This document shows positions 15,418 through 38,037 of a DNA stretch of 39,866 bases, piece after piece. The stretch is from assembly GCA_029856125.1 (NCBI GenBank), contig JAHQWJ010000051.1, positions 1 through 39,866 of the forward strand, read 5' to 3'. The position numbers and the translations under genes are program-made. This DNA is from Promethearchaeia archaeon. GTDB taxonomy: Archaea > Asgardarchaeota > Lokiarchaeia > Sigyniarchaeales > SOKP01. Under the pieces are notes generated by a model. It was given only the letters and a program-made list of their open reading frames with translations, was not told the DNA's origin and made no database searches. How positions within the stretch are numbered: the stretch's first letter is position 1; the number at the start of each line of letters is the position of its first letter.

Positions 15418-17466
15418 GTGAATTCGTTGAAAAAGAAGGACTTAAAGAAGTCACCGAATCTTAAGAAAACTTTTGTTGCAATTAACCAGCATCTATATGG
15501 AAAATTAAAATATGCTGATACTGACACTCGAGCACGCTCAAAAGAAATAATCAATCTTTTATTGTGTAAATTAGTTGATGAAATAAATAAGTCTCCAGAA
15601 GATGAAATGGACATCTATATAAGAGAAGAAGAGACAGAAAAAGAGCTACTTGAGCGGATTCAAACCTTTTTTCAACTGAATGTTAAAAAGAAATATCCTG
15701 ATTTAATGGAAGAAAACGAGCAAATAACTTTAAATAAGGATTTATTATTCATAATCATTAAAGAATTGGAGCACATTTCACTTCTTGAATCGTCTAAAGA
15801 TATTTTAAGCGATGCATTTGAAATATTTGTAAGTAAAATGTTAAAAGATGAAGGTGGACAATTCTTTACTCCCCCAAATATCGCAAAATTTATGGTAAAT
15901 TATTTAGATCCAGAAGAAGATTCAAAAATATTAGATCCCGCGTGTGGACATGGTGGATTTCTTCTTGAAGCAAAGGATTTGCTATGGTCCAAGATAGATA
16001 ATGAGCAGAAAAAAGTAGAAATAATTTCTAACTTACATGGCATAGATAAAGACTTGTTCTTAGCAAGGATTTGTAAATTATATTTAGAAATCTTAAGTAG
16101 TGGCAAATCTAATGTATTCTGTGAGGATTCGCTAGATCCCATTAGTTATCGGGATCAAGCAAAAAAAATAATAAAAAACAATAATTTTGATTTTATACTT
16201 ACCAATCCTCCATTTGGGGCAAAAATTCCAATAAATAATAAACAACTGCTAAATGAATACGAGTTCGGGCATGTTTGGAAGAATATTGATGGAAATTGGT
16301 GGAAACAAAAGAAAATAGTAAAACAACAACCCCCTCAGATATTATTTATTGAAAGATGTGTTCAGCTCCTTAAGGATGGTGGAAAATTAGGAATTGTTTT
16401 GCCTGAAGGTATTTTTGGAAACCCCTCAGATAGATATATCTGGGATTTTCTCAAATCAAATGGTAAAATTTTAGGAATAATATCATTAGATCAAAATACT
16501 TTTCAACCCTATACTTGTAATAAAACTTCAATCTTATTCTTTCAAAAGTTAAAGGATATTCCAGATGATTACAAGATTGACTTTGCTATAATCAATAATG
16601 TGGGGCACGATAAGGACGGGAAAACTAAATATATTTTGAATAAAGATGGAACTAAGAAATTAGATAAGGAAAAAAATCCTATTATAAATGATGATTTAAT
16701 CGAACTCCGCATGAAATTAAGGAATACAGACGATTTTAACTACCAAAAGGAGCAAAAACTCTTTAAAATTAATTTTAGTAAGATTAAAAATAGTATTTTT
16801 ATCCCTTCTTATTATATTGGTGTAGAAAAACCTCTAAAGGTTCTCGAAAATAGTGTTGATTTTCAATTAATTTCTATCGGCGATCTAATTAATAGGAAAA
16901 TAATATACACAAAAAATAGAGATTTTATTCCAAGAGGTGTCGAAATTGGTTCTAGTGTTTATGGTTTAGGTTCTATTCCTTTCATACGAACCAGTGATAT
17001 AAACAATTGGGAAATTAACTTAGATTCTCATAAGAAAACCTCTGAAGAAGTTTATAACCAGTTTAAAGTCAAGCAGAATATTGAAGTTGGGGACATCCTC
17101 TTAGTTAAAGATGGTGGACCAAATCTTATTGGGAGAACTGCGTATATTACCGAATTAGACACAAGAATCATTATTCAGAGTCACATTTTCCAAATTAAAA
17201 TCCTTGAAAACAGGGAAAACATCGATTCATATCTTATTTTGCATCTTTTAAACCTAGATATTGTTCAAAAACAGATTAGAGCAATAACATTTGTGCAAGG
17301 AACAATTTCTACCATCGGTAACAGAATTTTGGATGTTAAATTGCCATTACCAACTGATCTAAGCAAAAGAATAATCATTTCAAATTACATTAATGAAATT
17401 ATAAAAAATAAAACTGAGACAAGAAAAAAAATACATAATCTTTCTTTAAATTCTTTCGATGATTAA
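15418..17466 (+). CDS. N6-adenine DNA methyltransferase (HsdM-like) fused to a single HsdS-type target recognition domain
   Basis: GQFFTP, ILDPACGHGGFL (motif I), TNPPFG (motif IV), LFIERC...LGIVLPEG; C-terminal IPFIRTSDI...GDILLVKDG...IGRTA...LPLP TRD pattern. Confidence 0.9.
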   Translation: MNSLKKKDLKKSPNLKKTFVAINQHLYGKLKYADTDTRARSKEIINLLLCKLVDEINKSPEDEMDIYIREEETEKELLERIQTFFQLNVKKKYPDLMEENEQITLNKDLLFIIIKELEHISLLESSKDILSDAFEIFVSKMLKDEGGQFFTPPNIAKFMVNYLDPEEDSKILDPACGHGGFLLEAKDLLWSKIDNEQKKVEIISNLHGIDKDLFLARICKLYLEILSSGKSNVFCEDSLDPISYRDQAKKIIKNNNFDFILTNPPFGAKIPINNKQLLNEYEFGHVWKNIDGNWWKQKKIVKQQPPQILFIERCVQLLKDGGKLGIVLPEGIFGNPSDRYIWDFLKSNGKILGIISLDQNTFQPYTCNKTSILFFQKLKDIPDDYKIDFAIINNVGHDKDGKTKYILNKDGTKKLDKEKNPIINDDLIELRMKLRNTDDFNYQKEQKLFKINFSKIKNSIFIPSYYIGVEKPLKVLENSVDFQLISIGDLINRKIIYTKNRDFIPRGVEIGSSVYGLGSIPFIRTSDINNWEINLDSHKKTSEEVYNQFKVKQNIEVGDILLVKDGGPNLIGRTAYITELDTRIIIQSHIFQIKILENRENIDSYLILHLLNLDIVQKQIRAITFVQGTISTIGNRILDVKLPLPTDLSKRIIISNYINEIIKNKTETRKKIHNLSLNSFDD

Positions 17467-20539: not shown

Positions 20540-21097
20540 TTATAAATTACTTTTATATTTTTCATATAAATCTCTAATTATTTTTTGGAACGCTTCGGTC
20601 ACCCCTTGATTAGTCTTCGCAGAAGTTCGATAGACTCCAATAATATTTTTCTCTTTAGTGAAGTTTTGAATAAATGCGTCATCTAACTCAGCTTCATTAA
20701 TTAAATCTACTTTATTTGCGAAAATAATAACTGGAATATCACCACAACTCTGTTTAAGGTCCTTATACCAATAATCAATGTGATCGAGACTTTCTTTGCC
20801 ACGATCCTTATCTTCGAGGGAATAAACAATAATTGCAGCTTTACTTTCTTCATAAAAATCAGAGCGTAAAAATTCAAACTCCTTTTGACCAGCAATATCC
20901 CAAAAGTACAATTTACATTCATCTCCATTTATTTTCTCATCATAAAAAGAAAACTGGGCACCTATTGTAGATATATAATCCTCCTCAAAAGTACCCTCAG
21001 TATATTTTTTAATTAGAGATGTTTTTCCAACCCCTCCATCTCCAATTACTGTTATTTTAAATACAAATTTTAAAGGTTTATCATTCATTAGTTTCAA
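20540..21097 (-). CDS. Rab-like small GTPase (Ras superfamily)
   Basis: G1 GDGGVGKTS, G2 YISTIG, G3 WDIAGQ, G4 NKVD, G5 TSAK; no C-terminal Cys prenylation motif; start may be ATG 21088. Confidence 0.95.
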   Translation of the reverse strand: MKLMNDKPLKFVFKITVIGDGGVGKTSLIKKYTEGTFEEDYISTIGAQFSFYDEKINGDECKLYFWDIAGQKEFEFLRSDFYEESKAAIIVYSLEDKDRGKESLDHIDYWYKDLKQSCGDIPVIIFANKVDLINEAELDDAFIQNFTKEKNIIGVYRTSAKTNQGVTEAFQKIIRDLYEKYKSNL

Positions 21098-24830: not shown

Positions 24831-26096
24831 GTGAAAAATATGAGGAAAGTTGCTATAGTTGGAATAGGAATAACTCCTTTTAGAGCAAGATATTTGGATA
24901 AAACATATTTCGAGCTCGCTTACGATGCTACAAAACTCGCCTTGGAAGACGCGAACAAAAATGGGGCGGAAATTACCCATAACAATTTAGAATCTACGGT
25001 ATATGGTATATATAACGAGTTATTTGAGCGACAATTCATGCCAGATATCTTTATAAATTCTTACATCGGTATGAACAATAAACCTGGAACTCGAATAGCA
25101 TCTGGGGGCGCTACCGGAGGTTATACCGTGAGAATGGCTTACGCCGAAGTAGCCTCAGGGCTATCTGATCTATGTCTTTGTCTTGGTGTGGAGAAATGTA
25201 ATGATTGTTACGACGAACAGACAGGAGTAACTACTCCAGAAGTTTTGAACGCGATCGCATATTCAGCTGATATGACGTACGAATATCCAATGGGAATGAT
25301 GGCTGCCAGTTCTTATGTTTCAATGGTTAATGCCCATTACGAAGAATTTGGTAATCCAACTGAAGAACAAATGGCATATGTCAGCGTCAAGAATCACGGT
25401 AATGCTCTTTTAAACCCGAAGGCACAATCTCCAATGAAAGTGAGTGTGGAGGATGTTTTAAACTCACGTATCATATGTTTTCCTTTCAAGATGCTTGATT
25501 GTTGCCTTTATTCCGAGGCTTCAGCTGCATTAATTTTAGCAAATGAAGATAAAGTAAAAGAGTTAGGGGTTGAAAATCCTATTTGGATTACGGGGGTTGG
25601 TGCAGCTAACACTGATTGTTTTATAGGAAATCGGGAAGATATGGGGCGGCTATATTCTAACATCTATGCGGCGAAAGCAGCATACAAAATGGCTGGTTTG
25701 GATTATAACAATATTAAGAGCCAAATAGACTTAGCAGAACTACACGACGCATTTTCTGGTCAAGAAGTCATCTCGTATGAAGAGCTTGGATTCGTACCTT
25801 TCGGAGAGGGTGGTCCGTGGATAAAAAAAACGTTCGAAAAACCAGGAGAGGGTCCTTGGTTAGAAGGAGAGCTTCCATGTTGTCCTTCAGGTGGTTTGAT
25901 AGGATGTGGACACGCGGTCGGTGCAACGGGAATTATGAGCACAGGCGAAGCTGCTTTTCAATTAAGAGAAGAAGCGGGTAAGCATCAAGTGCCAATAACT
26001 GAGGGCAGAGCTATATCTCATTCTATTGGAGGTCCTGGTGCAGCTTATGCTGCAATAATAGTAATGGCAAACGAGGAGGGGTTGAAAAAACCATGA
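24831..26096 (+). CDS. SCP2-type thiolase-fold protein lacking the nucleophilic Cys
   Basis: VAIVGIG, KNHGNALLNPKAQ, ELHDAF, GHAVGATG; IASGGATGG at the usual xxCASG position. Confidence 0.9.
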   Translation: MKNMRKVAIVGIGITPFRARYLDKTYFELAYDATKLALEDANKNGAEITHNNLESTVYGIYNELFERQFMPDIFINSYIGMNNKPGTRIASGGATGGYTVRMAYAEVASGLSDLCLCLGVEKCNDCYDEQTGVTTPEVLNAIAYSADMTYEYPMGMMAASSYVSMVNAHYEEFGNPTEEQMAYVSVKNHGNALLNPKAQSPMKVSVEDVLNSRIICFPFKMLDCCLYSEASAALILANEDKVKELGVENPIWITGVGAANTDCFIGNREDMGRLYSNIYAAKAAYKMAGLDYNNIKSQIDLAELHDAFSGQEVISYEELGFVPFGEGGPWIKKTFEKPGEGPWLEGELPCCPSGGLIGCGHAVGATGIMSTGEAAFQLREEAGKHQVPITEGRAISHSIGGPGAAYAAIIVMANEEGLKKP

Positions 26097-26587
26097 GCGA
26101 AGAGTTTCAAGACCATCAAATTCGAGACGTAATAAAGATTAACTACAAATACACGATGGGTGGACAATCAAAGTTTTTTATAGAGTTGAAGAATAATAAG
26201 CGATTATTAGGTACAATGTGTGCAAAATGCGGAAAAACTTGGATGCCACCTAGAATTAATTGCTCAGATTGTTACGAACCTGCAGATTGGGTGGAACTAA
26301 AACAGACTGGAACTATTGAAGTGAGCACTATAGTATGGTATACTACTTCAGCTTTCATTAAAGCAATACCTTACGGAGTTGGGTTTATAAAATTAGATGG
26401 AGCTGAAACCGCGCTACTCCAAGGTATTTTTTCAGAAAATTTGGTTCCTTCAAAAATTAAAAAAGGCAAACGAGTTAAAGCAGTATTTAACAAGGAGAGG
26501 GTAGGGAAAATGACTGACTTCTTTTTCGTTCCAGAGGATGAGTATGATAATTGGATATCAAAAGCAGAATACGAGGGAGGCGTGTAG
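26093..26587 (+). CDS. DUF35 Zn-ribbon/OB-fold acyl-CoA-binding protein
   Basis: CAKCG...PPRINCSDC, GTIEVSTIV, IKLDG, KGKRVKAVF; ATGA overlap with the thiolase. Confidence 0.92.
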   Translation: MSEEFQDHQIRDVIKINYKYTMGGQSKFFIELKNNKRLLGTMCAKCGKTWMPPRINCSDCYEPADWVELKQTGTIEVSTIVWYTTSAFIKAIPYGVGFIKLDGAETALLQGIFSENLVPSKIKKGKRVKAVFNKERVGKMTDFFFVPEDEYDNWISKAEYEGGV

Positions 26588-26589
26588 AA

Positions 26590-26961
26590 ATGGGACAAGC
26601 GGAAGAAAGCTTAATGAAAATCATTGAGAAAATGAATTCGAATCCTAAAGCCCTGGCTGTTTTTATCACCAATGTTGCTGGTAAAAATGTCGATTGGGAA
26701 ATGACATTTCAGTTCAATTTGGATAAAGATGAGCAATTTTTCCTCGATGTTAAAAACCAAGCTGTCAATCTTTCTGAAGGGATAAAATTCGACGCAATGA
26801 TCGTTATGTCAGGCGAATCGAAAGCCATTGAGAGGATTTGTGAAGGGAAGGGTGATTTTACTCATGCAATCTCTCGAGAGCAAATCACTGTTGAAAAGGG
26901 AAAAGTCATGGATGTCATCCGCCTTACAAGAGCTATCACAATTGTGTTAAAATCTAAATAA
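26590..26961 (+). CDS. SCP2 sterol/lipid-carrier domain protein
   Basis: TFQFNL...FFLDVKN...EG...DAMIVM...ICEGKGD...AISREQITVE pattern; ATG 26590 after GGAGG. Confidence 0.75.
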   Translation: MGQAEESLMKIIEKMNSNPKALAVFITNVAGKNVDWEMTFQFNLDKDEQFFLDVKNQAVNLSEGIKFDAMIVMSGESKAIERICEGKGDFTHAISREQITVEKGKVMDVIRLTRAITIVLKSK

Positions 26962-27115: not shown

Positions 27116-28330
27116 ATGAACGCAGAATCTAAGAAACCACGGCTTCTCTTCCTTGATAATATAAAGTTCTTATTTACTATTCTTGTGATCTTCCAGCATG
27201 TGAGGGTTACTTATGGTGGATCAGGGGTGTGGTATTATATTGAGGCTCCTCCAGTAGATACTTTCAGTCTTATATTCTTTATAACTTTATCCTCGATTGG
27301 GGGTCTTTTTCAAGCCTCACTCATGGGATTATTCTTTTTAATGGGTGGTTATTTTACTCCTAAAAGTTACGATCGAAAAGGTATCCGTTCCTTTTGGAAA
27401 GAACGACTTCTTCGTCTCGGTATTCCTCTCTTATTGTATATTTTTCTAGTTAATCCTATTTTGATTTATATCATTCATGCTTTAGGAATTCTAAATTATG
27501 GTTCCTTCCTAACACCGCAAGGATCTTTTTTAGAATATTATTTAAGTCAATTTCAATCACTCGAAGCGTTTATAGGCTTTATTACAAGAACTGGTCCTAT
27601 GTGGTTTCTCTACGTTTTATTGATTTTTACTGTTGTTTATACTATTTGGAGGCAGATAACAAAGATTGACTCCGTACAACGACGCATCCCAAAAGAACTT
27701 TCAATCCCAAAATATATCTACTTACTCCTTGTAGCTATTATCTTAGGATTTCTTACTTTTTTAGTTCGCTTAGTCTCTCCTATAGACAAATTTCCGCTGG
27801 GAATGCCATTAGGTTTTTTCATTATTTATCTCATGATGTTCAGCGTTGGTGTCATCGCTGTTCGATATAATTGGATCGAAAAGATGACCAGACGTCAGGT
27901 CAAAATCTGGGCTATTACAATTTTAGCTGCTTTTGTATTACTTTATCTCTATGTCTTTCTATTTCTAGGATTTGATTCAGATCTTAGCGTTTTCTTAGGA
28001 GGACCCACTTTGCACGCTCTTCTATTTGTAGTCGCAGAAAATGTCGTTGGTATGGGAATGATTTTTGTGTTACTTAAGATTTTTTACGCAAAATTCAACG
28101 ATCAAGGAAAAATACTACAGAACTTAACCTCTAGTGCGTTTTATATGTACCTTATTCATCCACTTGTCCTTGTTCCTGTTTCCCTTGGATTTGCATTCAT
28201 ACCACTTCTTCCCGTTATAAAACTAGTCATTGTATTTCCTTTAACAGTCATCCTTTGCTATCTGATAAGTCATTTTGTCCTCGAAAAGATACCTATGAAA
28301 AAACGTACAAGAGACACTCAGAATAGTTAG
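27116..28330 (+). CDS. acyltransferase-3 family (OpgC/MdoC-like) membrane acyltransferase
   Basis: RLLFLDNIK...LVIFQH, MGLFFLMGGYF, KERLLRLGIP, GPMWFLYVL, YLIHP. Confidence 0.92.
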   Translation: MNAESKKPRLLFLDNIKFLFTILVIFQHVRVTYGGSGVWYYIEAPPVDTFSLIFFITLSSIGGLFQASLMGLFFLMGGYFTPKSYDRKGIRSFWKERLLRLGIPLLLYIFLVNPILIYIIHALGILNYGSFLTPQGSFLEYYLSQFQSLEAFIGFITRTGPMWFLYVLLIFTVVYTIWRQITKIDSVQRRIPKELSIPKYIYLLLVAIILGFLTFLVRLVSPIDKFPLGMPLGFFIIYLMMFSVGVIAVRYNWIEKMTRRQVKIWAITILAAFVLLYLYVFLFLGFDSDLSVFLGGPTLHALLFVVAENVVGMGMIFVLLKIFYAKFNDQGKILQNLTSSAFYMYLIHPLVLVPVSLGFAFIPLLPVIKLVIVFPLTVILCYLISHFVLEKIPMKKRTRDTQNS

Positions 28331-28759: not shown

Positions 28760-29926
28760 ATGGGTATTATGTCTAGAAGTTTGGAACATTTTCAAGAATC
28801 CGTAATAAGAAAAATGACTAGGAAAGCTATAGAAAATGATGCAATTAACCTTTCTCAAGGAATGCCTGACTTTTCTCCTCCTTTAGAGCTAATAGAGGGT
28901 ATAAAAGAAGGCTTGGATGAAGAGAAGCACCAGTATAGCGTCACATATGGACGTACTGATTTAAGGGAAAAAATATCAGAAAAGCTCCAAGATTATAATA
29001 AACTAGTGGTTGATCCTTACAATGAACTAACTATAACATGTGGGGCAAGTGAGGCTATTGCTTCGAGCATTCTTGCAATAACAAATCCAGGAGATGAAAT
29101 CTTAATTCTTGAACCTTGGTATGAGAATTATGTTCCCATTACATATCTTGCTCAAGGTAAACCTGTGTTTGTTTCTTTATCTAAAGAAAACTATAGCATT
29201 GATGAAGAAGTATTAAAGAATAGCATTAATAAGAAAACTAAGGCTACAATAATAAATTCACCCCATAATCCTACTGGAAAGGTTTTTTCACCAGAAGATT
29301 TCAAAATAATCTCTGATTTATGCATCGATCATGATATTATTGTTATTACTGATGAAATTTATGAGCATATTATATTTGATGGTTTAAAACATCTAAGCAT
29401 TGGTAGTTTTGATTCGATGAAGGAAAGAACTATAACAATTAGTGGATTTAGTAAAACTTTTTCAGTAACCGGGTGGCGAATAGGATATGTAGCAGCTAAC
29501 CAAGAACTAATGAATGGGATAAGAAAAGTGCACGATTATTTAACTGTTTGTGCCCCAAGCTTATTACAATATGCCACATTGAAAGTATTTGATTTAAGTC
29601 CTGTATATTACAATGAACTTATAAATAGATATCAGAAAAATAGAGATTTTCTTCATAGTCAGCTTTTAAGCTTAGGTATGGATGTTTTTAATCCACAAGG
29701 GGCTTACTATATGTTTGCAGATATATCTCAATTTGGCATGAATGATATAGAATTCGCAAATTATTTAGTAAAAGATGAAGGAGTTGCTACAGTTCCTGGT
29801 TCCAGTTTTTACATGAATAATCGCCTTGGAAATAATCCTGGATCGAATTATGTAAGATTTTCTTTTTCTCAAAAGTTAGAAACATTACAAAATGCTGCAG
29901 ATCGCATTAAGAAGAGATTAATTTGA
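28760..29926 (+). CDS. PLP-dependent class I/II aminotransferase (YbdL/aspartate aminotransferase-like)
   Basis: INLSQGMPDF, NSPHNPTG, TDEIY, SKTFSVTGWRIG. Confidence 0.93.
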   Translation: MGIMSRSLEHFQESVIRKMTRKAIENDAINLSQGMPDFSPPLELIEGIKEGLDEEKHQYSVTYGRTDLREKISEKLQDYNKLVVDPYNELTITCGASEAIASSILAITNPGDEILILEPWYENYVPITYLAQGKPVFVSLSKENYSIDEEVLKNSINKKTKATIINSPHNPTGKVFSPEDFKIISDLCIDHDIIVITDEIYEHIIFDGLKHLSIGSFDSMKERTITISGFSKTFSVTGWRIGYVAANQELMNGIRKVHDYLTVCAPSLLQYATLKVFDLSPVYYNELINRYQKNRDFLHSQLLSLGMDVFNPQGAYYMFADISQFGMNDIEFANYLVKDEGVATVPGSSFYMNNRLGNNPGSNYVRFSFSQKLETLQNAADRIKKRLI

Positions 29927-29952
29927 AAATCTGATGAGTACTAATAATTACA

Positions 29953-30930
29953 TTAGTACCTTTTTATAATTTCTGTAAAGAGTGAATTTTCTATATTTCC
30001 TCCACTAATTATTGCTACTACATTCTTTTGGGCAAATATTTCTTTTTCTTCAAGAATACAAGCTACTGTTGTAGCACCTGCACCCTCTACAATTTGACCT
30101 TCCTCTTTCCAAAGAAGACTGATTGCTCTTTTAACAGAATCCTCATCAACTAATATTATCCTATCAACATATTCTTTTATTAGTTCAAAAGTTAAAGCGC
30201 CAAGTTCAAGTCCGCCTAATAACCCTTCTGCGATAGTTTGGAATTCTTCTGTATACACAATTTTACCCGCCTTCCAGGATTCATACATTGTAGAGGCTCC
30301 TTTTGTTTGAACTCCTATTACTTCAATATTGGGATTTAAAGATTTAGCTGCTAATACGATACCAGAAATTAAACCACCTCCACCAATAGGAACAATTATG
30401 GAATTTACCTGAGCGTTTTCTTCAAATACTTCAAGTGCAATAGTTCCTTGACCGGTTATAATGTCAATATCATTATAGGGACTAATGTATGTTAAATTTT
30501 CTTTAAGAGACACTTCTCTTGCTTTTTTTTCGATTGTATCAAATTCTCCTTCTTGAATAATATTAACATCATATTTCTTTATTTTACTTAATTTTGCCAT
30601 GGAAACATTTGTAGGAATCACTATTCTTGCAGAAATTTTCAAGTTTTCTGCCGCCAATGCTACTCCTTGAGCATGATTGCCAGATGATGCTGTAACAACC
30701 CCGTTTCTTCTTTCTTCTGAACTCAACTGTAACAATCGGTTAAAAGCACCACGCACTTTAAATGAGTTAGTGGGTTGTAAATTTTCTAACTTCAAAAATA
30801 CATCACCGTTACAGATTTGACTTAGATGTTCAGAATGGATTAGTGGTGTATTTCTAACAAATTTTTTTATCCTTTCTCTAGCTTTCTTGATTGTTTCTAA
30901 ATTGATATCAATCATGTTTAAGGAAATCAT
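29953..30930 (-). CDS. PLP serine/threonine dehydratase family (EutB/BhcB-like, no ACT domain)
   Basis: LKLENLQPTNSFKVRG, ASSGNHAQG, PIGGGGLISG, IVEGAGA, ISGGN. Confidence 0.92.
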   Translation of the reverse strand: MISLNMIDINLETIKKARERIKKFVRNTPLIHSEHLSQICNGDVFLKLENLQPTNSFKVRGAFNRLLQLSSEERRNGVVTASSGNHAQGVALAAENLKISARIVIPTNVSMAKLSKIKKYDVNIIQEGEFDTIEKKAREVSLKENLTYISPYNDIDIITGQGTIALEVFEENAQVNSIIVPIGGGGLISGIVLAAKSLNPNIEVIGVQTKGASTMYESWKAGKIVYTEEFQTIAEGLLGGLELGALTFELIKEYVDRIILVDEDSVKRAISLLWKEEGQIVEGAGATTVACILEEKEIFAQKNVVAIISGGNIENSLFTEIIKRY

Positions 30931-30935
30931 CTGTT

Positions 30936-31931
30936 TTATATATCTAATAAAGATACTACACGCCCAATCCCTTTTTCTTTTGCTTGTTTATAAACAATAT
31001 TAGCAGCAGCAATATCTTGAGCAGCTAGACCTGTAGCATCAAAGAGTGTGATTTCTTCGTTTGTTTCACGGCCTATCTTTTCTCCAATGAGAATTTTGCC
31101 TATTTCGGCATAAACATCATCTTCAGTTATCAAACCATCTGCTAATGCATGTTGAATTTCTCCAATTATTCTACACTGGTTTAAGCTATCTACTACGACT
31201 TTATCTGCTCTTTTAACAATAAATGGATCTAATTCTTGCTTACCTGGTCCATCTGCTCCGATTGCATTGATATGAACTCCTTCTTGAATCCATTCTTTCA
31301 TTACAAGAGCTTTTCTAGATGGGGTTACTGTTACAATAATATCAGTTTCAGTTACAGCATTCTTAATGTCTTCTGCTGGTTCTATTGGAATCTTTAGTTG
31401 TTCTGACATTTCTTCTACATACCTGTCTCGCTCAGTTGTATTAATGTCCCAAACTTTGATTTTCTTTAAGGAGAAAACCTCTCGTAATGCTAAGACTTGC
31501 ATTCTTGCTTGTGTCCCAGCCCCAACAACTCCAATTATATTAGAGTCTTTTCTTGCGAGTGCTTTGGCTGCAACAGCTCCAGCAGCTCCTGTTCTATATG
31601 CAGTAACATAAGTTCCATCCATTATTGCTACTGGCATACTTGTTTTAAGATCCATCAAGATTATTACCGCAATCCCTGGAGGTAATCCCAATTTATAATT
31701 CTCGTAGAAACCGCTCGCAATTTTGGTACCGATAAGTCCAAGATCCTCGATGTAACCTGATTTAATATCTACTTCCCCATTATACTGTGAAACATCTAAA
31801 TGCATGACTGGTGGCATTTTTACCCGTCCTTTTGCGAACGCAATGTATGCTTCTCGCACTGCTCTAATTGCCTCACTCATAGGTAAACATGACTTGACTT
31901 CATTTTGAGATAGTATTATTATTTTTGACAT
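30936..31931 (-). CDS. ornithine cyclodeaminase/mu-crystallin family imine reductase (EutC/AlaDH-like)
   Basis: TAYRTGAAG, GAGTQA, HINAIGAD, FDATGLAAQD; N-terminal MPPVMHLD...GEVDIKSGY...KIASGFYEN. Confidence 0.92.
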   Translation of the reverse strand: MSKIIILSQNEVKSCLPMSEAIRAVREAYIAFAKGRVKMPPVMHLDVSQYNGEVDIKSGYIEDLGLIGTKIASGFYENYKLGLPPGIAVIILMDLKTSMPVAIMDGTYVTAYRTGAAGAVAAKALARKDSNIIGVVGAGTQARMQVLALREVFSLKKIKVWDINTTERDRYVEEMSEQLKIPIEPAEDIKNAVTETDIIVTVTPSRKALVMKEWIQEGVHINAIGADGPGKQELDPFIVKRADKVVVDSLNQCRIIGEIQHALADGLITEDDVYAEIGKILIGEKIGRETNEEITLFDATGLAAQDIAAANIVYKQAKEKGIGRVVSLLDI

Positions 31932-32433
31932 AACATCACATTATTTTATAGAAGACATTTGTATAATAATATTATTACACGAAAAATCTTCTACATTGTG
32001 GACAAGTATTATTGGTGAGTGAAATTACACTCCCATATTTTGACTAGTTTATTATTTTATTTGAATTACGCTATACATTACTTCTAACTACCGTAGGTTT
32101 AGCTAGTTAATTTATACCACGCAATATACTAGCCATCATGCAAGTATTCGGTAGCATAGACCCAAAATCGTTTAAAAATGGTTATGGAAAATTGTTATGA
32201 GTATTATCAACAAATTAATTCCAGTATAAAAGAAAAGAGCCTTATCAAAGATAATGTATGCAGAGAAAGATGTATATATTTTTAAGAAAAAAGAACTTAG
32301 AGGTTAAAATAATATGCCTTCTCAATAGAAAAATAGAAAGCTTTAAAAAGGCAATTAACAAAATGTACACAGTAGAAATCAAATAAAAAAAATAAAAAAA
32401 ATATATAAAATAATTTAAAGATGTGATTAATAA

Positions 32434-33237
32434 ATGAAAAGAGAAATGGCCGTAATAGGATTTGTAGCCTGTTTAGCCGTAGGACTCGGTATTGGGTGGT
32501 TAATACCAGGATTATTAACACCTGCCTCAACTCCTGGTCAAACATTGGTGGATGAGATTCAGGCTAGAGGTGAGCTGATTGTTGGAACTGATGCTCCCTG
32601 GCCACCTTTCGAACTGTTCAACGTTACTACTTCTACATGGGAAGGATTTGACATTGATCTATCACAAATGATTGCAGATGAACTAGGTGTAACCCTTACA
32701 ATGACAAATATTCTTTTTGACGAACTGATTGGGGCATGCAAAGCAGGTACTATTGACATGATTGCAGCAGCGATGATGGTCAGACATTCTCGCGCACAGG
32801 AACTTGCACACTCTGTAACTTATATTCGGGTAAATGAGGTAATTGTAGTCAAGGGTAATTCAACTCTTAGCATTACCAGTTTAAACGAACTCAACACCAC
32901 TGTAGTCGGCTGTCAAGCAGGTACAACTCAATATGATGCATTGGTTGCCATCCCAGGATTGACTGAAGGAGTGAATTTGAAAGTGTATCCTAAAGCTGAT
33001 ATTATGATGGCAGAGCTAGACAATGGAGTTATAGATGCTGCATTTGTAGATGAACCTGTAGTAACTGTCTGGTCGAAGACGTACAGTCAAAAGATAATCT
33101 TCATTGTTCCTGCCGAGCCTATGGCGATGTGGTCCCGTTGGGAGGAGCCAGAATTGATGATGGTAATCAATAAGGTTATTCTTGAATCTTATAGAGACGG
33201 AGTTATGGATGATCTTTACACAAAGTGGTTTAGTTGA
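32434..33237 (+). CDS. polar amino acid ABC transporter substrate-binding protein (family 3)
   Basis: N-terminal membrane anchor, LIVGTDAPWPPFE, GFDIDL, GCQAGTT. Confidence 0.93.
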   Translation: MKREMAVIGFVACLAVGLGIGWLIPGLLTPASTPGQTLVDEIQARGELIVGTDAPWPPFELFNVTTSTWEGFDIDLSQMIADELGVTLTMTNILFDELIGACKAGTIDMIAAAMMVRHSRAQELAHSVTYIRVNEVIVVKGNSTLSITSLNELNTTVVGCQAGTTQYDALVAIPGLTEGVNLKVYPKADIMMAELDNGVIDAAFVDEPVVTVWSKTYSQKIIFIVPAEPMAMWSRWEEPELMMVINKVILESYRDGVMDDLYTKWFS

Positions 33238-33240
33238 GCA

Positions 33241-33927
33241 ATGAGCAACACTCCAAATATTCAAACTATTTTTTTTTATATTTTAAGTGAAGGTTTGTTT
33301 GCAACCTTAGCCCTTACAGCCCTAGGTTTATTAATTGGATTTGCAATAGGTCTTTTACTAGCGCTTATGCGGGTTTACGGCCCTACAGAAATAGGGTGGT
33401 TCGCAAGCGGTTATGAGAAAATATTTCGTGGCATTCCAGTTCTGGTTCTTATCTTTATCTTCTCTTTTGGAATACCTGGGTTGTTTTCGTATCTAGAACC
33501 TCTTGAGAGACCGATTGCTGGAGTAATATTAGCACTTGGGCTTCGTAGTGGTGCCTATCAGTCTCAAATATTTCGTGGAGCTATTCTATCAGTAAATCCA
33601 GGGCAAATGGAAGCTGCTCGTGCTATAGGAATGAACGGATTTCAATCTTTCCGTCATATTGTATTTCCTCAGGCACTACGACTGGCTGTACCCAGCTGGT
33701 CCAATGAGTATGCAGTGGTTATTAAAGATTCATCTTTCGCATATGGGGTTGGAATTGTTGAGATGACCAGAGTGGCTTTCGATATAGCAGCAAACTTTCC
33801 GGTGCTTATGCCTCTTTCAATGGCTATAGTTGCGATCCTATACCTTATTTTTACTTATCCTGTGACGAAATTATTTGGTGAACGGCAAACTAAGAAACTA
33901 AAGGATTTCGGAATGGGGGGAGGTTAG
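33241..33927 (+). CDS. polar amino acid ABC permease
   Basis: [16 protein letters not shown] (EAA loop), PQALR, IKDSS. Confidence 0.93.
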
Positions 33928-33929
33928 AT

Positions 33930-34712
33930 ATGGAAAAAAATGTATTAAACGTGGTCGATGTTTGGAAGGCGTATGACGAATTGGAGGTTCTAAAAGGGGT
34001 TTCATTTGAATTAGCAAAACGAGAAGTTAAAGTAATCTTTGGACCGAGTGGTTCTGGGAAAAGTACACTACTTCGCTGTATTAATATGCTAACTCCGCCA
34101 GACAAGGGTGAAATATATCTTTCAGGGCAGAATCTTATAGCGCCTGGAGTAGATCTTAATGCAATGCGAGCTAAGATCGGCATGGTATTCCAACATTTTA
34201 ATCTTTTCTCTCATCTCAAAGCAATTGATAATGTTAGTGTTGGTCTTCGTCGAGTAAAAGGATTTACAAAGGAAGATGCTCGTGCAAAAGCACTAGATGC
34301 GTTATATCAAGTTAAAATGGCAGAATGGGCAGAACATTACCCTGCACAACTATCTGGCGGACAACAACAACGTGTGGGCATAGCTCGTGCTTTAGCTATG
34401 AAACCGGATTTAATTTTGTTTGATGAACCAACATCTGCATTAGATCCTGAGCTTATAGGTGAAGTATTACAGGTTATGTTGGAAATTGCTAAAGCGGGCA
34501 CTACTATGGTGGTGGTCACGCATGAAATGGGGTTCGCTCGTGCAGTGGCGTCAGAAATGATTTTCCTCGATCAGGGTGTCGTTATCGAGCGTGGAACTCC
34601 CGAACACTTTTTCGTCTCCCCTGAAACCGAGCGTGTAAAACACTTTCTTAGACAGATTAATATTTTATATGGACATCACGAAGAACTTTTAAAAGAATTT
34701 AATGAGGATTAA
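33930..34712 (+). CDS. polar amino acid ABC ATPase (GlnQ-like)
   Basis: [42 protein letters not shown]. Confidence 0.95.
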
Positions 34713-34717
34713 AAACT

Positions 34718-35497
34718 ATGATTTTCCAAGTTCTTCCTCAAGAATTATTAGATTTACTTCGCGTGCTGGAATTCTGGGATCACATCCTCATAGGTTTGGC
34801 AAAAACTATGTGGTTATATGTTTGGGCACTTCTGTTTGGCTTTTTTCTTGGTCTTTTACTCGCTCTTCTTCGCCATTATGGTGGAAGGATTCTTTCACGG
34901 ATTGCCACTGGATATGTTGAGATTGTACGCGGTACACCTTTACTTATACAGTTGCTCTTTATTTACTTTCTTCCCTTTAGTATAAATTCTTTCCTAGATG
35001 CACAAGGTCTTCCTTTTATCCCCATAGGGAGATGGAGTATTTATGTCACTTCAGAACTCTTTGGAAGAACTATGACTATGGTCTTTTTAGATCACATAAC
35101 ATTAATGGGAATCCTTACGTTAAGCCTTAATAGTGCAGCTTATCAAGCGGAATACTTACGTGGGGCTGTTATGTCCATTAGTAGCGGACAATTAGAGGCT
35201 GCTCAATCGATTGGTATGTCTCGTCGGTCTGGTATTTTGCATATCGTATTGCCCCAGGCCCTACGTCGTGTTATTCCCTCATGGTCTAACGAAGCTGCTT
35301 ATCTTCCTAAGTATACTGTCGTTGTCTTTTATATAGGATTAACAGAACTTTTTGCACAGGCACATTATATAATTTCAGAAACTTTTCTCACACTCTCTGT
35401 ATACATAGTTGTAGCACTCATTTTTTTAGTGATTATCACACTTATCTCCAAATCATTGGACATCCTCTACAAATGGACAGCTATACCTGGTTTGTAA
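34718..35497 (+). CDS. polar amino acid ABC permease (second)
   Basis: YVEIVRGTPLLIQL, AAYQAEYLRG, GQLEAAQSIGM. Confidence 0.93.
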   Translation: MIFQVLPQELLDLLRVLEFWDHILIGLAKTMWLYVWALLFGFFLGLLLALLRHYGGRILSRIATGYVEIVRGTPLLIQLLFIYFLPFSINSFLDAQGLPFIPIGRWSIYVTSELFGRTMTMVFLDHITLMGILTLSLNSAAYQAEYLRGAVMSISSGQLEAAQSIGMSRRSGILHIVLPQALRRVIPSWSNEAAYLPKYTVVVFYIGLTELFAQAHYIISETFLTLSVYIVVALIFLVIITLISKSLDILYKWTAIPGL

Positions 35498-35652
35498 ACC
35501 TTAGTAAGAATAAATTATACTAATTTCCTTTTTTTTTACTCTTTCGCTCAATTAATTAAAAAGTTACTCTAGGGATATTGAGTTAACAATACAAGAATTC
35601 CTTTATTTACATAAAACTATTTTCAATTATGTAAGTTTGAAATATATTAATA

Positions 35653-36780
35653 CTATTTCTTCAATTCCATGATTAATTCGTGTATGCGATTAAGTCCTGA
35701 TGTAAGGTAATCTGGTGGTAATCCAAAACTTATCCGAAAAAATTTATCCATACCAAAATGGTCACCTGGCACAATAAAAACACTCTTCTCCTTACGCAAG
35801 CGTTCTGCAAATTCAGTGGAATTGATGTCTAAATGATAGCGAACAAACGCGATTGCGGCAGCTTGTGAAGGGATAACGCTAAAAATATTTTCATGGCTAT
35901 CCATCCATCGTTGAAGAATAGGATATCCTTGTCGAATGAAATTACGAGTACGCTGAATAATTCGTTGTCTTACCTTTGGAGACAACGCAATTGCAGCAAG
36001 TTTGTTTGATAACATTGTAGCACTAATTGTAGTGTATTCATGCCGTGCCCAAATATCCTTTATAGTTTCAGTAGGTGCAACTGCCCATCCAATACGAAGC
36101 CCAGGTAAGCCATAAGCTTTACTCATGCTACCTATTGCTATCACTTTCTCATAGCGTCCAAAAAAGGAAGGCGTTTCATCATCTCTTAATCGTTCAGCAC
36201 CAATGTATACTTCATCAGCTAAAATCCATGCGTTAACTCGGTCTGCTATAGCAATTATACTATCCATTTCATTCTCATTCAAGATGTAACCTGTGGGATT
36301 GTTAGGATTGCAGATGGCAATGAGTTTAGTTTTCTTGGAGACAATCTTATCTAATTCAATTAAGTCAGGTGCCCAACCATTTTCTTCAAGTAGATGGAAT
36401 TCTTTTATTTTGAAACCGTGGTTCTGAGCAATACCCCAAATTTGCATATAATTTGGTAACATAATTACTATTTCATCATTTGGGTTAAGTAGTGTACAAG
36501 TTGCGTTGTAATTCGCTTCAATCGCTCCTGTTGTAACTAGAATGTTTTTCGTGGTAGCTCCATCATATAGAGCGGCAATATTTTCCCGTAATTCGGGAAT
36601 ACCCTCAACATGTGGGTAATTCAGATCAGTAGCAAGTAAATCGTTAATGTAATCAGGATCATCTGACAATAATTCACTGAGCAAAATTGGGTGAACTCCA
36701 CTTTCGGACAGGTTAAAATCAACTTCCTGCTCAAACTTGGACATCCAACGTTCCATAAGAAAAGGTTGAAATTTAGACAT
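35653..36780 (-). CDS. PLP-dependent class I/II aminotransferase-like enzyme
   Basis: NLSESG, CNPNNPTG, ADEVY, SKAYGLPGLRIGW. Confidence 0.92.
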   Translation of the reverse strand: MSKFQPFLMERWMSKFEQEVDFNLSESGVHPILLSELLSDDPDYINDLLATDLNYPHVEGIPELRENIAALYDGATTKNILVTTGAIEANYNATCTLLNPNDEIVIMLPNYMQIWGIAQNHGFKIKEFHLLEENGWAPDLIELDKIVSKKTKLIAICNPNNPTGYILNENEMDSIIAIADRVNAWILADEVYIGAERLRDDETPSFFGRYEKVIAIGSMSKAYGLPGLRIGWAVAPTETIKDIWARHEYTTISATMLSNKLAAIALSPKVRQRIIQRTRNFIRQGYPILQRWMDSHENIFSVIPSQAAAIAFVRYHLDINSTEFAERLRKEKSVFIVPGDHFGMDKFFRISFGLPPDYLTSGLNRIHELIMELKK

Positions 36781-36978
36781 TTTACTATTTTCCTATTTAA
36801 GATTAAAGAATTATTTATTATCTATAGATCTTAAATTCTTCAAACATTTTTATACTTTGATCATCAAATGAATTAATTTACTTCTTTCTAATTCTAAACA
36901 GATGATTGAAAAAGGTTTTATCATACTATTTTATTTTTATGAAACATTATAGAAATTTAATTAATTATTGATGAAGTC

Positions 36979-38037
36979 ATGATTAAATTGAGAATTGTTG
37001 ATTTAAGGTCTGATACAGTAACAAAACCTTCTCCTGAGATGTGGGACACGATAAAATTAATGGATAATTCTAAGCTAGGAGATGATGTAGAGGGAGAGGA
37101 TCCAACTGTTAATGAATTAGAAGAAAAAGCTGCTAAACTCGTTGGAAAAGAAGCAGCCCTACTAGTAACTTCGGGAACTCAGGGCAATTTAGTGTCAGTG
37201 CTCTCGCAAACAAAACCTGGTGATGAAATATTATTAGAGGAATTTAACCATATATATGCCCATGAAGTAGGGAACGCAGCAAGGATCGGAGGATTAATGA
37301 TTAGAACATATTCTTCTAATAAAGGAGTTCCCTCTTTTGAGTATTTACAATCTTTAATTAGAGATAAGGAGAATATACATAATCCTCCATCATCACTATT
37401 GTGCACCGAGAATACTCATAATTACCATGGTGGTGCTATAATTAGTATTGATACTCTAAGGAGAATGAAAGAATTCGCAAAGAAAAATGAACTAAAATTT
37501 CACTTAGATGGTGCAAGAATTTTTAACGCAGCAGTTGGATTAAACGTACCAGTTACAGAATTTACAAAACATGTTGATAGCGTAATGTTTTGTTTGTCTA
37601 AAGGGCTCTCATGCCCTGTAGGATCGATTGTAGCCGGTTCCAAAGAAACAATTGCTAAAGCAAGGAAGTTTCGAAAAATGCTTGGAGGGGGAATGCGTCA
37701 AGCAGGAATTATTGCTGCTTTTGGACTCATTGCACTAAAACCTAAATGGATAAATAGACTTAACGAGGATCATAAAAATGCGAAACTTCTAGCTGAAGGA
37801 TTAAAAACTATTAGCTTGCCAGTAAAGGTTCATCCTCCAGACACAAATATAGTGATCGTTGAGTTGTTAGAAAAGGTAAAAATACATAAAATAATTAATC
37901 AACTAAACAATGCAGGAATATTAGCATTTAACATTAGTAAACAAAAAATTAGGTTTGTCACTCATTATGGAATTGATGAACATGATGTTGATCATAGTAT
38001 TGAGCAAATCGGATTTATTTTAAAAAAGAATTTGTAA
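36979..38037 (+). CDS. ltaE: low-specificity L-threonine aldolase
   Basis: DLRSDTVT, GDDV..EDPTV, SGTQGN, HLDGARIFNA, CLSKGL, GGGMRQAG, RFVTH. Confidence 0.93.
   Translation: MIKLRIVDLRSDTVTKPSPEMWDTIKLMDNSKLGDDVEGEDPTVNELEEKAAKLVGKEAALLVTSGTQGNLVSVLSQTKPGDEILLEEFNHIYAHEVGNAARIGGLMIRTYSSNKGVPSFEYLQSLIRDKENIHNPPSSLLCTENTHNYHGGAIISIDTLRRMKEFAKKNELKFHLDGARIFNAAVGLNVPVTEFTKHVDSVMFCLSKGLSCPVGSIVAGSKETIAKARKFRKMLGGGMRQAGIIAAFGLIALKPKWINRLNEDHKNAKLLAEGLKTISLPVKVHPPDTNIVIVELLEKVKIHKIINQLNNAGILAFNISKQKIRFVTHYGIDEHDVDHSIEQIGFILKKNL

Follow-up and report, generated by a model that had tools for sequence, protein, structure and literature searches.

A patchwork island of amino-acid genes in a Lokiarchaeal contig and a recurring dehydratase/reductase/aminotransferase module

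Contig JAHQWJ010000051.1 of a sediment Promethearchaeia archaeon (assembly GCA_029856125.1) is analyzed here over its whole length of 39,866 nucleotides, referred to as the window, and is contig C51 of a 3.69 Mb host genome that is 99% complete. Between positions 28760 and 38037 it carries nine contiguous amino-acid genes: two class I/II aminotransferases (AT1 and AT2), a fold-II pyridoxal phosphate (PLP) dehydratase of the Ser/Thr-dehydratase family (DHT), a predicted imine reductase of the ornithine cyclodeaminase/mu-crystallin family (OCD), the binding protein (SBP), two permeases and ATPase of a polar amino-acid importer of the ATP-binding cassette (ABC) type, and an L-threonine aldolase (LTA). 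These nine genes are a recently assembled patchwork and not one conserved pathway. Inside the patchwork lies a smaller module, consisting of a dehydratase, an OCD-family reductase and a PRK07324-like aminotransferase, which recurs in Asgards and bacteria with non-orthologous partners and sometimes with a polar ABC importer. All nine open reading frames (ORFs) were intact, the Pfam assignments agreed with the gene families that a first-pass annotation had given them, and the nearest named homologues were Promethearchaeota/Lokiarchaeota.

Linkage of the nine genes in relatives

Linkage was counted in 134 genomes of the family, a pair being scored as linked when its genes lay within 10 kb, with the genomes that carry both genes as the denominator. 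SBP and LTA were linked in 26 of 33 genomes, DHT and AT1 in 9/9 and DHT and OCD in 2/2; SBP-DHT (3/13), SBP-AT2 (2/9) and LTA-AT2 (2/9) were partly linked, and no linkage within the family was seen for LTA-DHT (0/11), LTA-AT1 (0/8), LTA-OCD (0/2) or DHT-AT2 (0/9), where "unlinked" often means that the two genes are on different contigs of a draft genome. Separation on one and the same contig was observed for SBP and AT2 (226 kb apart in genome G245) and for SBP and DHT (158 kb apart in G257). These counts led us to reject a conserved nine-gene operon. In 41 congeners no orthologue of OCD, DHT, AT1 or AT2 was found; most of these genomes retain ABC, LTA and hydratase genes, in this order, following the thiolase/ChsH2/SCP2 module that the window also has.

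The identity of the DNA was also mosaic. Locus L062, from an independent assembly, was 94-96% identical to the window at the nucleotide level across the island and 81% across the backbone; for L202 the figures were 87-92% in the four enzyme genes and 73-77% in the backbone, ABC and LTA genes, and in the congener G007 the LTA and hydratase genes were 86% identical and the ABC genes 69%. From the linkage counts and this mosaic identity, the run of eight genes that starts with AT1 and ends with AT2 (about 28.6-36.9 kb) is inferred to be an accessory island that moves laterally, with LTA belonging to the backbone. The island occupies the slot between the thiolase/ChsH2/SCP2 module and the aldolase-hydratase block, and it unites three units that most relatives keep apart, namely ABC followed by LTA, OCD followed by DHT together with AT1, and AT2. 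The cluster is not an assembly artefact, since the AT1-to-AT2 order is repeated in L062 and the gene order LTA-AT2-ABC-OCD-DHT is found on a further contig.

By orientation the window contains five transcription units, AT1(+), OCD-DHT(-), ABC(+), AT2(-) and LTA-hydratase(+), the last continuing 50 nt after LTA into a gene for an enoyl-CoA hydratase. Among the island genes co-transcription was plausible only for OCD and DHT (5-nt gap) and for the ABC genes (2-5-nt gaps). The fallback of the first-pass annotation, a loose functional cluster, was largely right. On the outcome that it had named as refuting its proposal, genes unlinked in related genomes, the synteny comparison is divided: the nine genes as a set are unlinked, the OCD-DHT(-AT2) core is not.

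The recurring module and its reductase

The module was followed through 155 OCD-anchored loci and their flanks, each locus standing for a 90% identity group, and a gene was taken as a neighbour when it lay within 1.5 kb. A DHT-like or AT2-like neighbour was observed for 16 of the 26 reductases that carry the residues V-H-D-K at four pocket positions (42, 44, 55 and 57 in OCD), for 7/15 with x-E-H-K, for 7/12 of the other types with K57 and for 0/26 with the signature of alanine dehydrogenase (AlaDH), K-Y-R-M. Within the V-H-D-K clade, DHT was the neighbour in 13/26 cases and AT2 in 3/26. In searches of the phylum, which scored 4-5 candidates per genome, the adjacent, co-directional OCD-DHT pair recurred in Loki, Thor and other Asgard families, and genome G187 had a co-directional run of an OCD-family gene from a different subfamily, an AT2-like gene, ABC genes and DHT. 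The trio was also carried by Aminicenantes, by a Thermoplasmata archaeon and by a Streptomyces plasmid. The dehydratase, imine-reductase and aminotransferase logic proposed in the first-pass annotation does recur. The bacterial trios (PRK06815 dehydratase, PRK06823-like OCD and PRK07324-like aminotransferase) belong to the same three families, and close AT2 homologues (73-76% identity) lead operons there; in contrast, the window DHT and OCD belong to Asgard subfamilies, with V-H-D-K in place of V-E-H-K. Our literature search found no study of this cluster or of a dehydratase/OCD/aminotransferase trio, and none that assigns a function to the PRK06815/PRK06823/PRK07324-like trio or to the Asgard subfamilies.

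Two of these loci deserve a separate description. In G187 (L225:8286-13654) the ABC and DHT block is flanked by a 239-nt, 83% repeat of the 3′ end of the aminotransferase gene and by a 76-nt, 91% repeat, a pattern that integration or duplication at the end of a gene could produce. On the Streptomyces plasmid (L282:2038-12445) the trio lies beside genes for a 2-oxoglutarate- and Fe-dependent dioxygenase, an iron redox enzyme and a DapF-like protein, hinting at a hydroxylated amino-acid substrate.

OCD belongs to an unstudied Asgard clade that, as judged from alignment, has a pocket of its own. It missed the cut-offs of the curated hidden Markov models (HMMs) for AlaDH (TIGR02371, score/cut-off 356/409), EutC (298/472) and BhcD (NF045643, 225/500), and scored 193/350 bits against the ornithine cyclodeaminase PRK07589. 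The tree placed it in a clade of 22 rows (99% SH-aLRT), the named members of which are Asgard. In approximately unbiased (AU) tests, one clade with EutC was rejected (p-AU 1.5e-5), as was one with the AlaDH-type (2e-4), and one with BhcD was weakly rejected (0.03); all trees and AU tests reported here are quick trees. The pocket residues of OCD are V42/H44/D55/K57, K70, R113, D227, K231 and D306, and the first four are invariant in the clade. At these four positions AlaDH-type enzymes have K41/Y43/R52/M54, BhcD has V-R-G-K, EutC has I-R-D-K or I-T-C-K and the bacterial PRK06823-like proteins have V-E-H-K. Both BhcD and EutC have K57 in common with OCD and, like it, lack the first Arg/Lys. For BhcD, the roles of the pocket residues are those that we presume from alignment and general knowledge.

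Over the whole protein, OCD matched archaeal AlaDH best, both by HMM and in the PDB, its best structural relatives being Archaeoglobus fulgidus AlaDH (PDB 1omo) and Thermococcus litoralis LhpI (PDB 6t3e). OCD has K70, R113, D306 and the NAD-type D162 in common with them, and D162 points to NAD(H) as the likely cofactor. However, the first Arg/Lys of the cyclodeaminase tetrad (R/K)-K-R-D is V42 in OCD, and Y43/R52/M54 of AlaDH are replaced by H44/D55/K57. Residues D55-D227-K231 aligned with the cyclodeaminase triad E56-D228-K232, mapped via T. litoralis numbering. A triple mutant of T. litoralis LhpI (EDK, in which an acid is added to DK) lost AlaDH activity and kept the reduction of Δ1-pyrroline-2-carboxylate (Pyr2C) (PMC4141209). 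Because of the cut-offs, the trees, the pocket residues and these mutant data, OCD is unlikely to act as an ordinary AlaDH or as an iminosuccinate reductase, and the phylogenetic check against AlaDH called for in the first-pass annotation separates the two.

Positions 44 and 55 are swapped between clades, H/D in the Asgard clade (window OCD) and E/H in the PRK06823-like clade (L225:14587-15555), which suggests that they may form an interacting His-acid pair. The host genome has a second OCD-family gene (C126:17279-18256, locus L207). This is the copy that the genus conserves, and its pocket, R-x-L-M, resembles that of the T. litoralis Pyr2C reductase LhpI.

DHT has the motif SSGNH (S83) and scored below every NCBIfam cut-off, including those of BhcB (NF045641, 250/550), EutB (299/413) and TdcB (323/453). 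In the dehydratase tree it fell in an Asgard clade apart from BhcB and EutB, and BhcB clustered not with DHT but with threo-hydroxyaspartate (THA) lyase and a host paralogue (96% SH-aLRT). Ser and Thr are probably substrates of DHT. The paralogue (C18:136971-137888) is a second fold-II dehydratase, 41% identical to BhcB, and no OCD-family match was found on its contig, C18.

Predicted route and competing readings

The reading that we favour, although tentatively and by analogy, is that the OCD-DHT-AT module serves catabolic amino-acid scavenging and works like BhcBD and EutBC. The ABC importer would take up a polar amino acid, DHT would remove its beta-hydroxyl by PLP-dependent beta-elimination to give an enamine/2-imino acid, and OCD would reduce the imine with NADH before it is hydrolyzed, yielding a deoxy L-amino acid, with the nitrogen kept and electrons disposed of; AT2 or AT1 would then move the amino group onto a 2-oxo acid. 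The dehydratase-reductase pairing of BhcB and BhcD is the model for this mechanism (bioRxiv 10.1101/2022.08.08.503134). A catabolic route fits those Asgards that ferment amino acids, and Asgards conserve the Ser/Thr dehydratase as a catabolic gene (PMC7015854). The pocket of OCD, with an acid at position 55 and no equivalents of K41/Y43/R52, would suit a larger, possibly basic or diamino substrate rather than beta-hydroxyaspartate. Three weak signs speak for a basic one, namely the acid at position 55, an SBP near Arg/Lys/Gln binders and an AT2 nearest to PRK07324, GntC and VioD.

Several points weigh against this reading. The activity and the substrate are predicted from sequence, and the argument from residues to substrate combines an alignment with one mutagenesis paper on another enzyme. 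The sampled loci and genomes are related, so that the neighbour counts given above amount to a pattern rather than to an independent test. The OCD-DHT pair is not obligate, because DHT orthologues were found in 14 genomes of genus g28 and this OCD in only 2 of these (12/14 lack it), and many Thorarchaeota have OCD with no DHT beside it. Furthermore, nothing was identified that would supply a basic amino acid with a beta-hydroxyl, and homologues of the ectoine hydrolase and deacetylase were not found.

The last point bears on a described parallel, the EutB/EutC and EhuABCD genes of hydroxyectoine catabolism, which likewise combine adjacent dehydratase and OCD-family genes with a polar amino-acid ABC importer; the EutC-type motif GEVD(I/V)K, with D55 and K57, is present in the window OCD. 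The step proposed for EutB/EutC leads from hydroxy-2,4-diaminobutyrate to 2,4-diaminobutyrate (bioRxiv 10.64898/2026.03.05.709796). Unlike EutB and EutC, the window proteins are under the cut-offs, the EutC clade is rejected and SBP is not EhuB-like. EutA, DoeA/EutD (the hydrolase) and DoeB/EutE (the deacetylase) gave no tblastn match at E 1e-6 in the 99%-complete genome, and no gene of the proline-racemase family, which would supply a trans-3-hydroxyproline dehydratase, was found. The beta-hydroxyaspartate cycle (BHAC), ectoine and trans-3-hydroxyproline pathways were rejected on the basis of cut-offs, trees and partner genes that were not found.

A rather improbable alternative is a cyclic-ketimine route. 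In this route the oxo acid formed by alpha-transamination of ornithine or lysine by AT2 would close to the ring compound Pyr2C or Δ1-piperideine-2-carboxylate, which OCD would reduce to proline or pipecolate; OCD might also cyclodeaminate directly. DHT would only make pyruvate or 2-oxobutyrate from Ser/Thr as amino acceptor, and the whole would act as an ALD1/SARD4-like electron sink. The three signs of a basic substrate fit this route too, including the SBP nearest to Arg/Lys/Gln binders, and the alignment of D55-D227-K231 with the cyclodeaminase triad and the Pyr2C reductase activity retained by the EDK mutant also speak for it. So do the common AT2-OCD pairs with no DHT and the ornithine carbamoyltransferase or amidinotransferase-like gene beside the AT-OCD pair in L160 and L035. 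GntC and VioD, the named AT2 relatives, act on arginine derivatives. The route has a precedent (PMC9929166), and the plant ALD1 and SARD4 pipecolate route offers an analogy, in which a class I aminotransferase feeds an OCD-family ketimine reductase with no dehydratase partner. Yet the window OCD is paired in one unit with DHT and not with AT2, its clade has DHT as neighbour far more often than AT2, and another OCD-family gene of the host (C126) already encodes an LhpI-like pocket.

An unlikely reading is that of a loose neighbourhood of independent housekeeping enzymes with broad specificity, namely a Ser/Thr deaminase, an AlaDH, two general aminotransferases and a threonine aldolase beside an importer, with no shared intermediate. 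It would agree with the five transcription units, with most pairs being unlinked in relatives, the whole-protein match of OCD to archaeal AlaDH, the bacterial-type Ald not found in the host genome and the ald-tdcB pair that exists in Bacillus. Against it stand the missing K41, Y43, R52 and M54, the AlaDH cut-off and the rejected K-Y-R-M clade, and also the neighbour counts, in which DHT and AT2 accompany the K57 types and never the K-Y-R-M genes.

A BHAC-like cycle is highly improbable. In it LTA would join glycine with an aldehyde such as glyoxylate, the product would become an amino acid through DHT and OCD, and glycine would be regenerated by an aminotransferase. The four reaction types do lie within 9.3 kb, a fold-II PLP dehydratase and an OCD-family imine reductase are shared with BhcABCD of Paracoccus denitrificans, V42 and K57 with its BhcD, and the grouping with BhcD is weakly rejected, but LTA tracks the backbone and not DHT or OCD, DHT and OCD are only 33-34% identical to BhcB and BhcD, H44 and D55 stand where BhcD has R and G, BhcB groups with the host paralogue, and the window has no co-directional four-gene operon. 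As the first-pass annotation had recognized, the cluster has class I aminotransferases and an L-threonine aldolase where the cycle has class V and D-threonine-aldolase-family enzymes; its proposal of the aldolase as the entry point was not supported, as LTA is tied to the ABC genes and backbone and is unlinked to DHT, OCD and AT1 beyond the close relatives of the window. No BhcR homologue was found; PF14031 was not found in the genome (the best BhcC-like match, 23%, is elsewhere), and for glyoxylate supply there was no isocitrate lyase and no GlcD past the cut-off. An archaeal BHAC is not demonstrated by these data.

Returning to the scavenging module, a stronger form of the favoured reading is that OCD-DHT-AT2(-ABC) is a dedicated, undescribed pathway of Asgards and anaerobic bacteria for the reductive deoxygenation of a non-standard beta-hydroxy, probably basic, amino acid. 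We consider this doubtful, and it is on the same doubtful footing that the substrate would come from sediment organic matter and the His-acid pair (H44/D55; E44/H55 in bacteria) would define a new specificity class. If the favoured reading is right, Asgards would have, in addition to the release of H2 or formate, a dehydratase-imine-reductase step that disposes of electrons and retains nitrogen. A three-enzyme module that is widespread and unannotated would gain a testable function, and the labels "alanine dehydrogenase" and "ornithine cyclodeaminase" would be corrected on a clade common in Thorarchaeota. The V-H-D-K reductase clade is the unstudied part most worth assaying.

Partner genes and features of the window

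The features are listed in Table 1. All expected PLP lysines were present by motif (AT1 K232, AT2 K221, DHT K58, LTA K208).

Table 1. Positions of the cluster genes and of other features in the window
Feature	Description	Positions	Strand	Basis or remark
AT1	Class I/II aminotransferase, glutamine/aromatic/kynurenine-transaminase-like	28760-29926	+	PF00155
DHT	Fold-II PLP Ser/Thr-dehydratase family, without regulatory domain	29953-30930	-	PF00291
OCD	OCD/mu-crystallin-family imine reductase (predicted)	30936-31931	-	PF02423
SBP	Family-3 polar amino-acid binding protein (SBP_bac_3)	32434-33237	+	PF00497
ABC importer	Polar amino-acid importer: permease, ATPase, permease	33241-35497	+	Pfam, HMM
AT2	Class I/II PLP enzyme, PRK07324/VioD/GntC-like	35653-36780	-	HMM, PDB matches
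LTA	L-threonine aldolase	36979-38037	+	PF01212
Thiolase module	Thiolase-like/ChsH2/SCP2-like module	24831-26961		Pfam
Small GTPase	Ras-family small GTPase gene	20540-21097		
DNA methylase	N6-adenine DNA methylase gene	15418-17466		
Acyltransferase	Acyltransferase-3 gene	27116-28330		Not seen in L062 at this slot

A search for integration repeats in the window gave only chance-length matches, and a scan for sigma-70 promoters and terminators, a model unsuited to archaea, was not above shuffles.

LTA meets its family profiles (PF01212, 316 bits; aldolase subfamily NF041359, 381 against a cut-off of 230) and matches the Thermotoga L-allo-threonine aldolase (E 4e-94). It is present in 73 of the 134 family genomes, usually with the ABC importer on its upstream side and genes for enoyl-CoA hydratases downstream, and in only 1/155 OCD-anchored loci, that one a close relative; no match was found in the five g18 genomes, three of which carry an ABC-DHT unit. 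On the tentatively favoured reading, LTA would be an ordinary enzyme converting Thr to Gly and acetaldehyde, outside the conserved enzyme module.

The nearest solved relatives of SBP are Arg/Lys/Gln binders, and in the alignment Met replaces the conserved Thr of its alpha-amino motif. The family has two SBP subtypes at one backbone locus, one that keeps Thr and one with Met/Phe (the window type), which suggests that they may bind different ligands. The G+C content of the permease and ATPase genes was within the top 2-7% of the long ORFs of the genome.

AT1, with aromatic and kynurenine aminotransferases as its best PDB matches and orthologues in 10/134 family genomes, is an island gene that moves together with DHT. 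AT2 scored below the cut-offs of PRK07324 (333/476), GntC (276/415) and VioD (218/391), with PDB matches 3op7 and 8fft, and is the mobile member of the module: when L061, L202 and the window were compared, AT2 was in two positions and the enzyme block in two orientations, and among the more distant homologues (73-76% identity) DHT and/or OCD was directly downstream in 4/5 looked up. In two other loci (L263:4992-13429 and L265:5529-18497) the AT2 orthologues lie inside a partly duplicated, co-directional ABC-LTA block with extra ATPase/permease copies, and in L265 the second aldolase is broken. The AT-OCD pair at L160:4846-10900 and L035:671-6917 lies beside ornithine carbamoyltransferase, class III aminotransferase and amidinotransferase-like genes.

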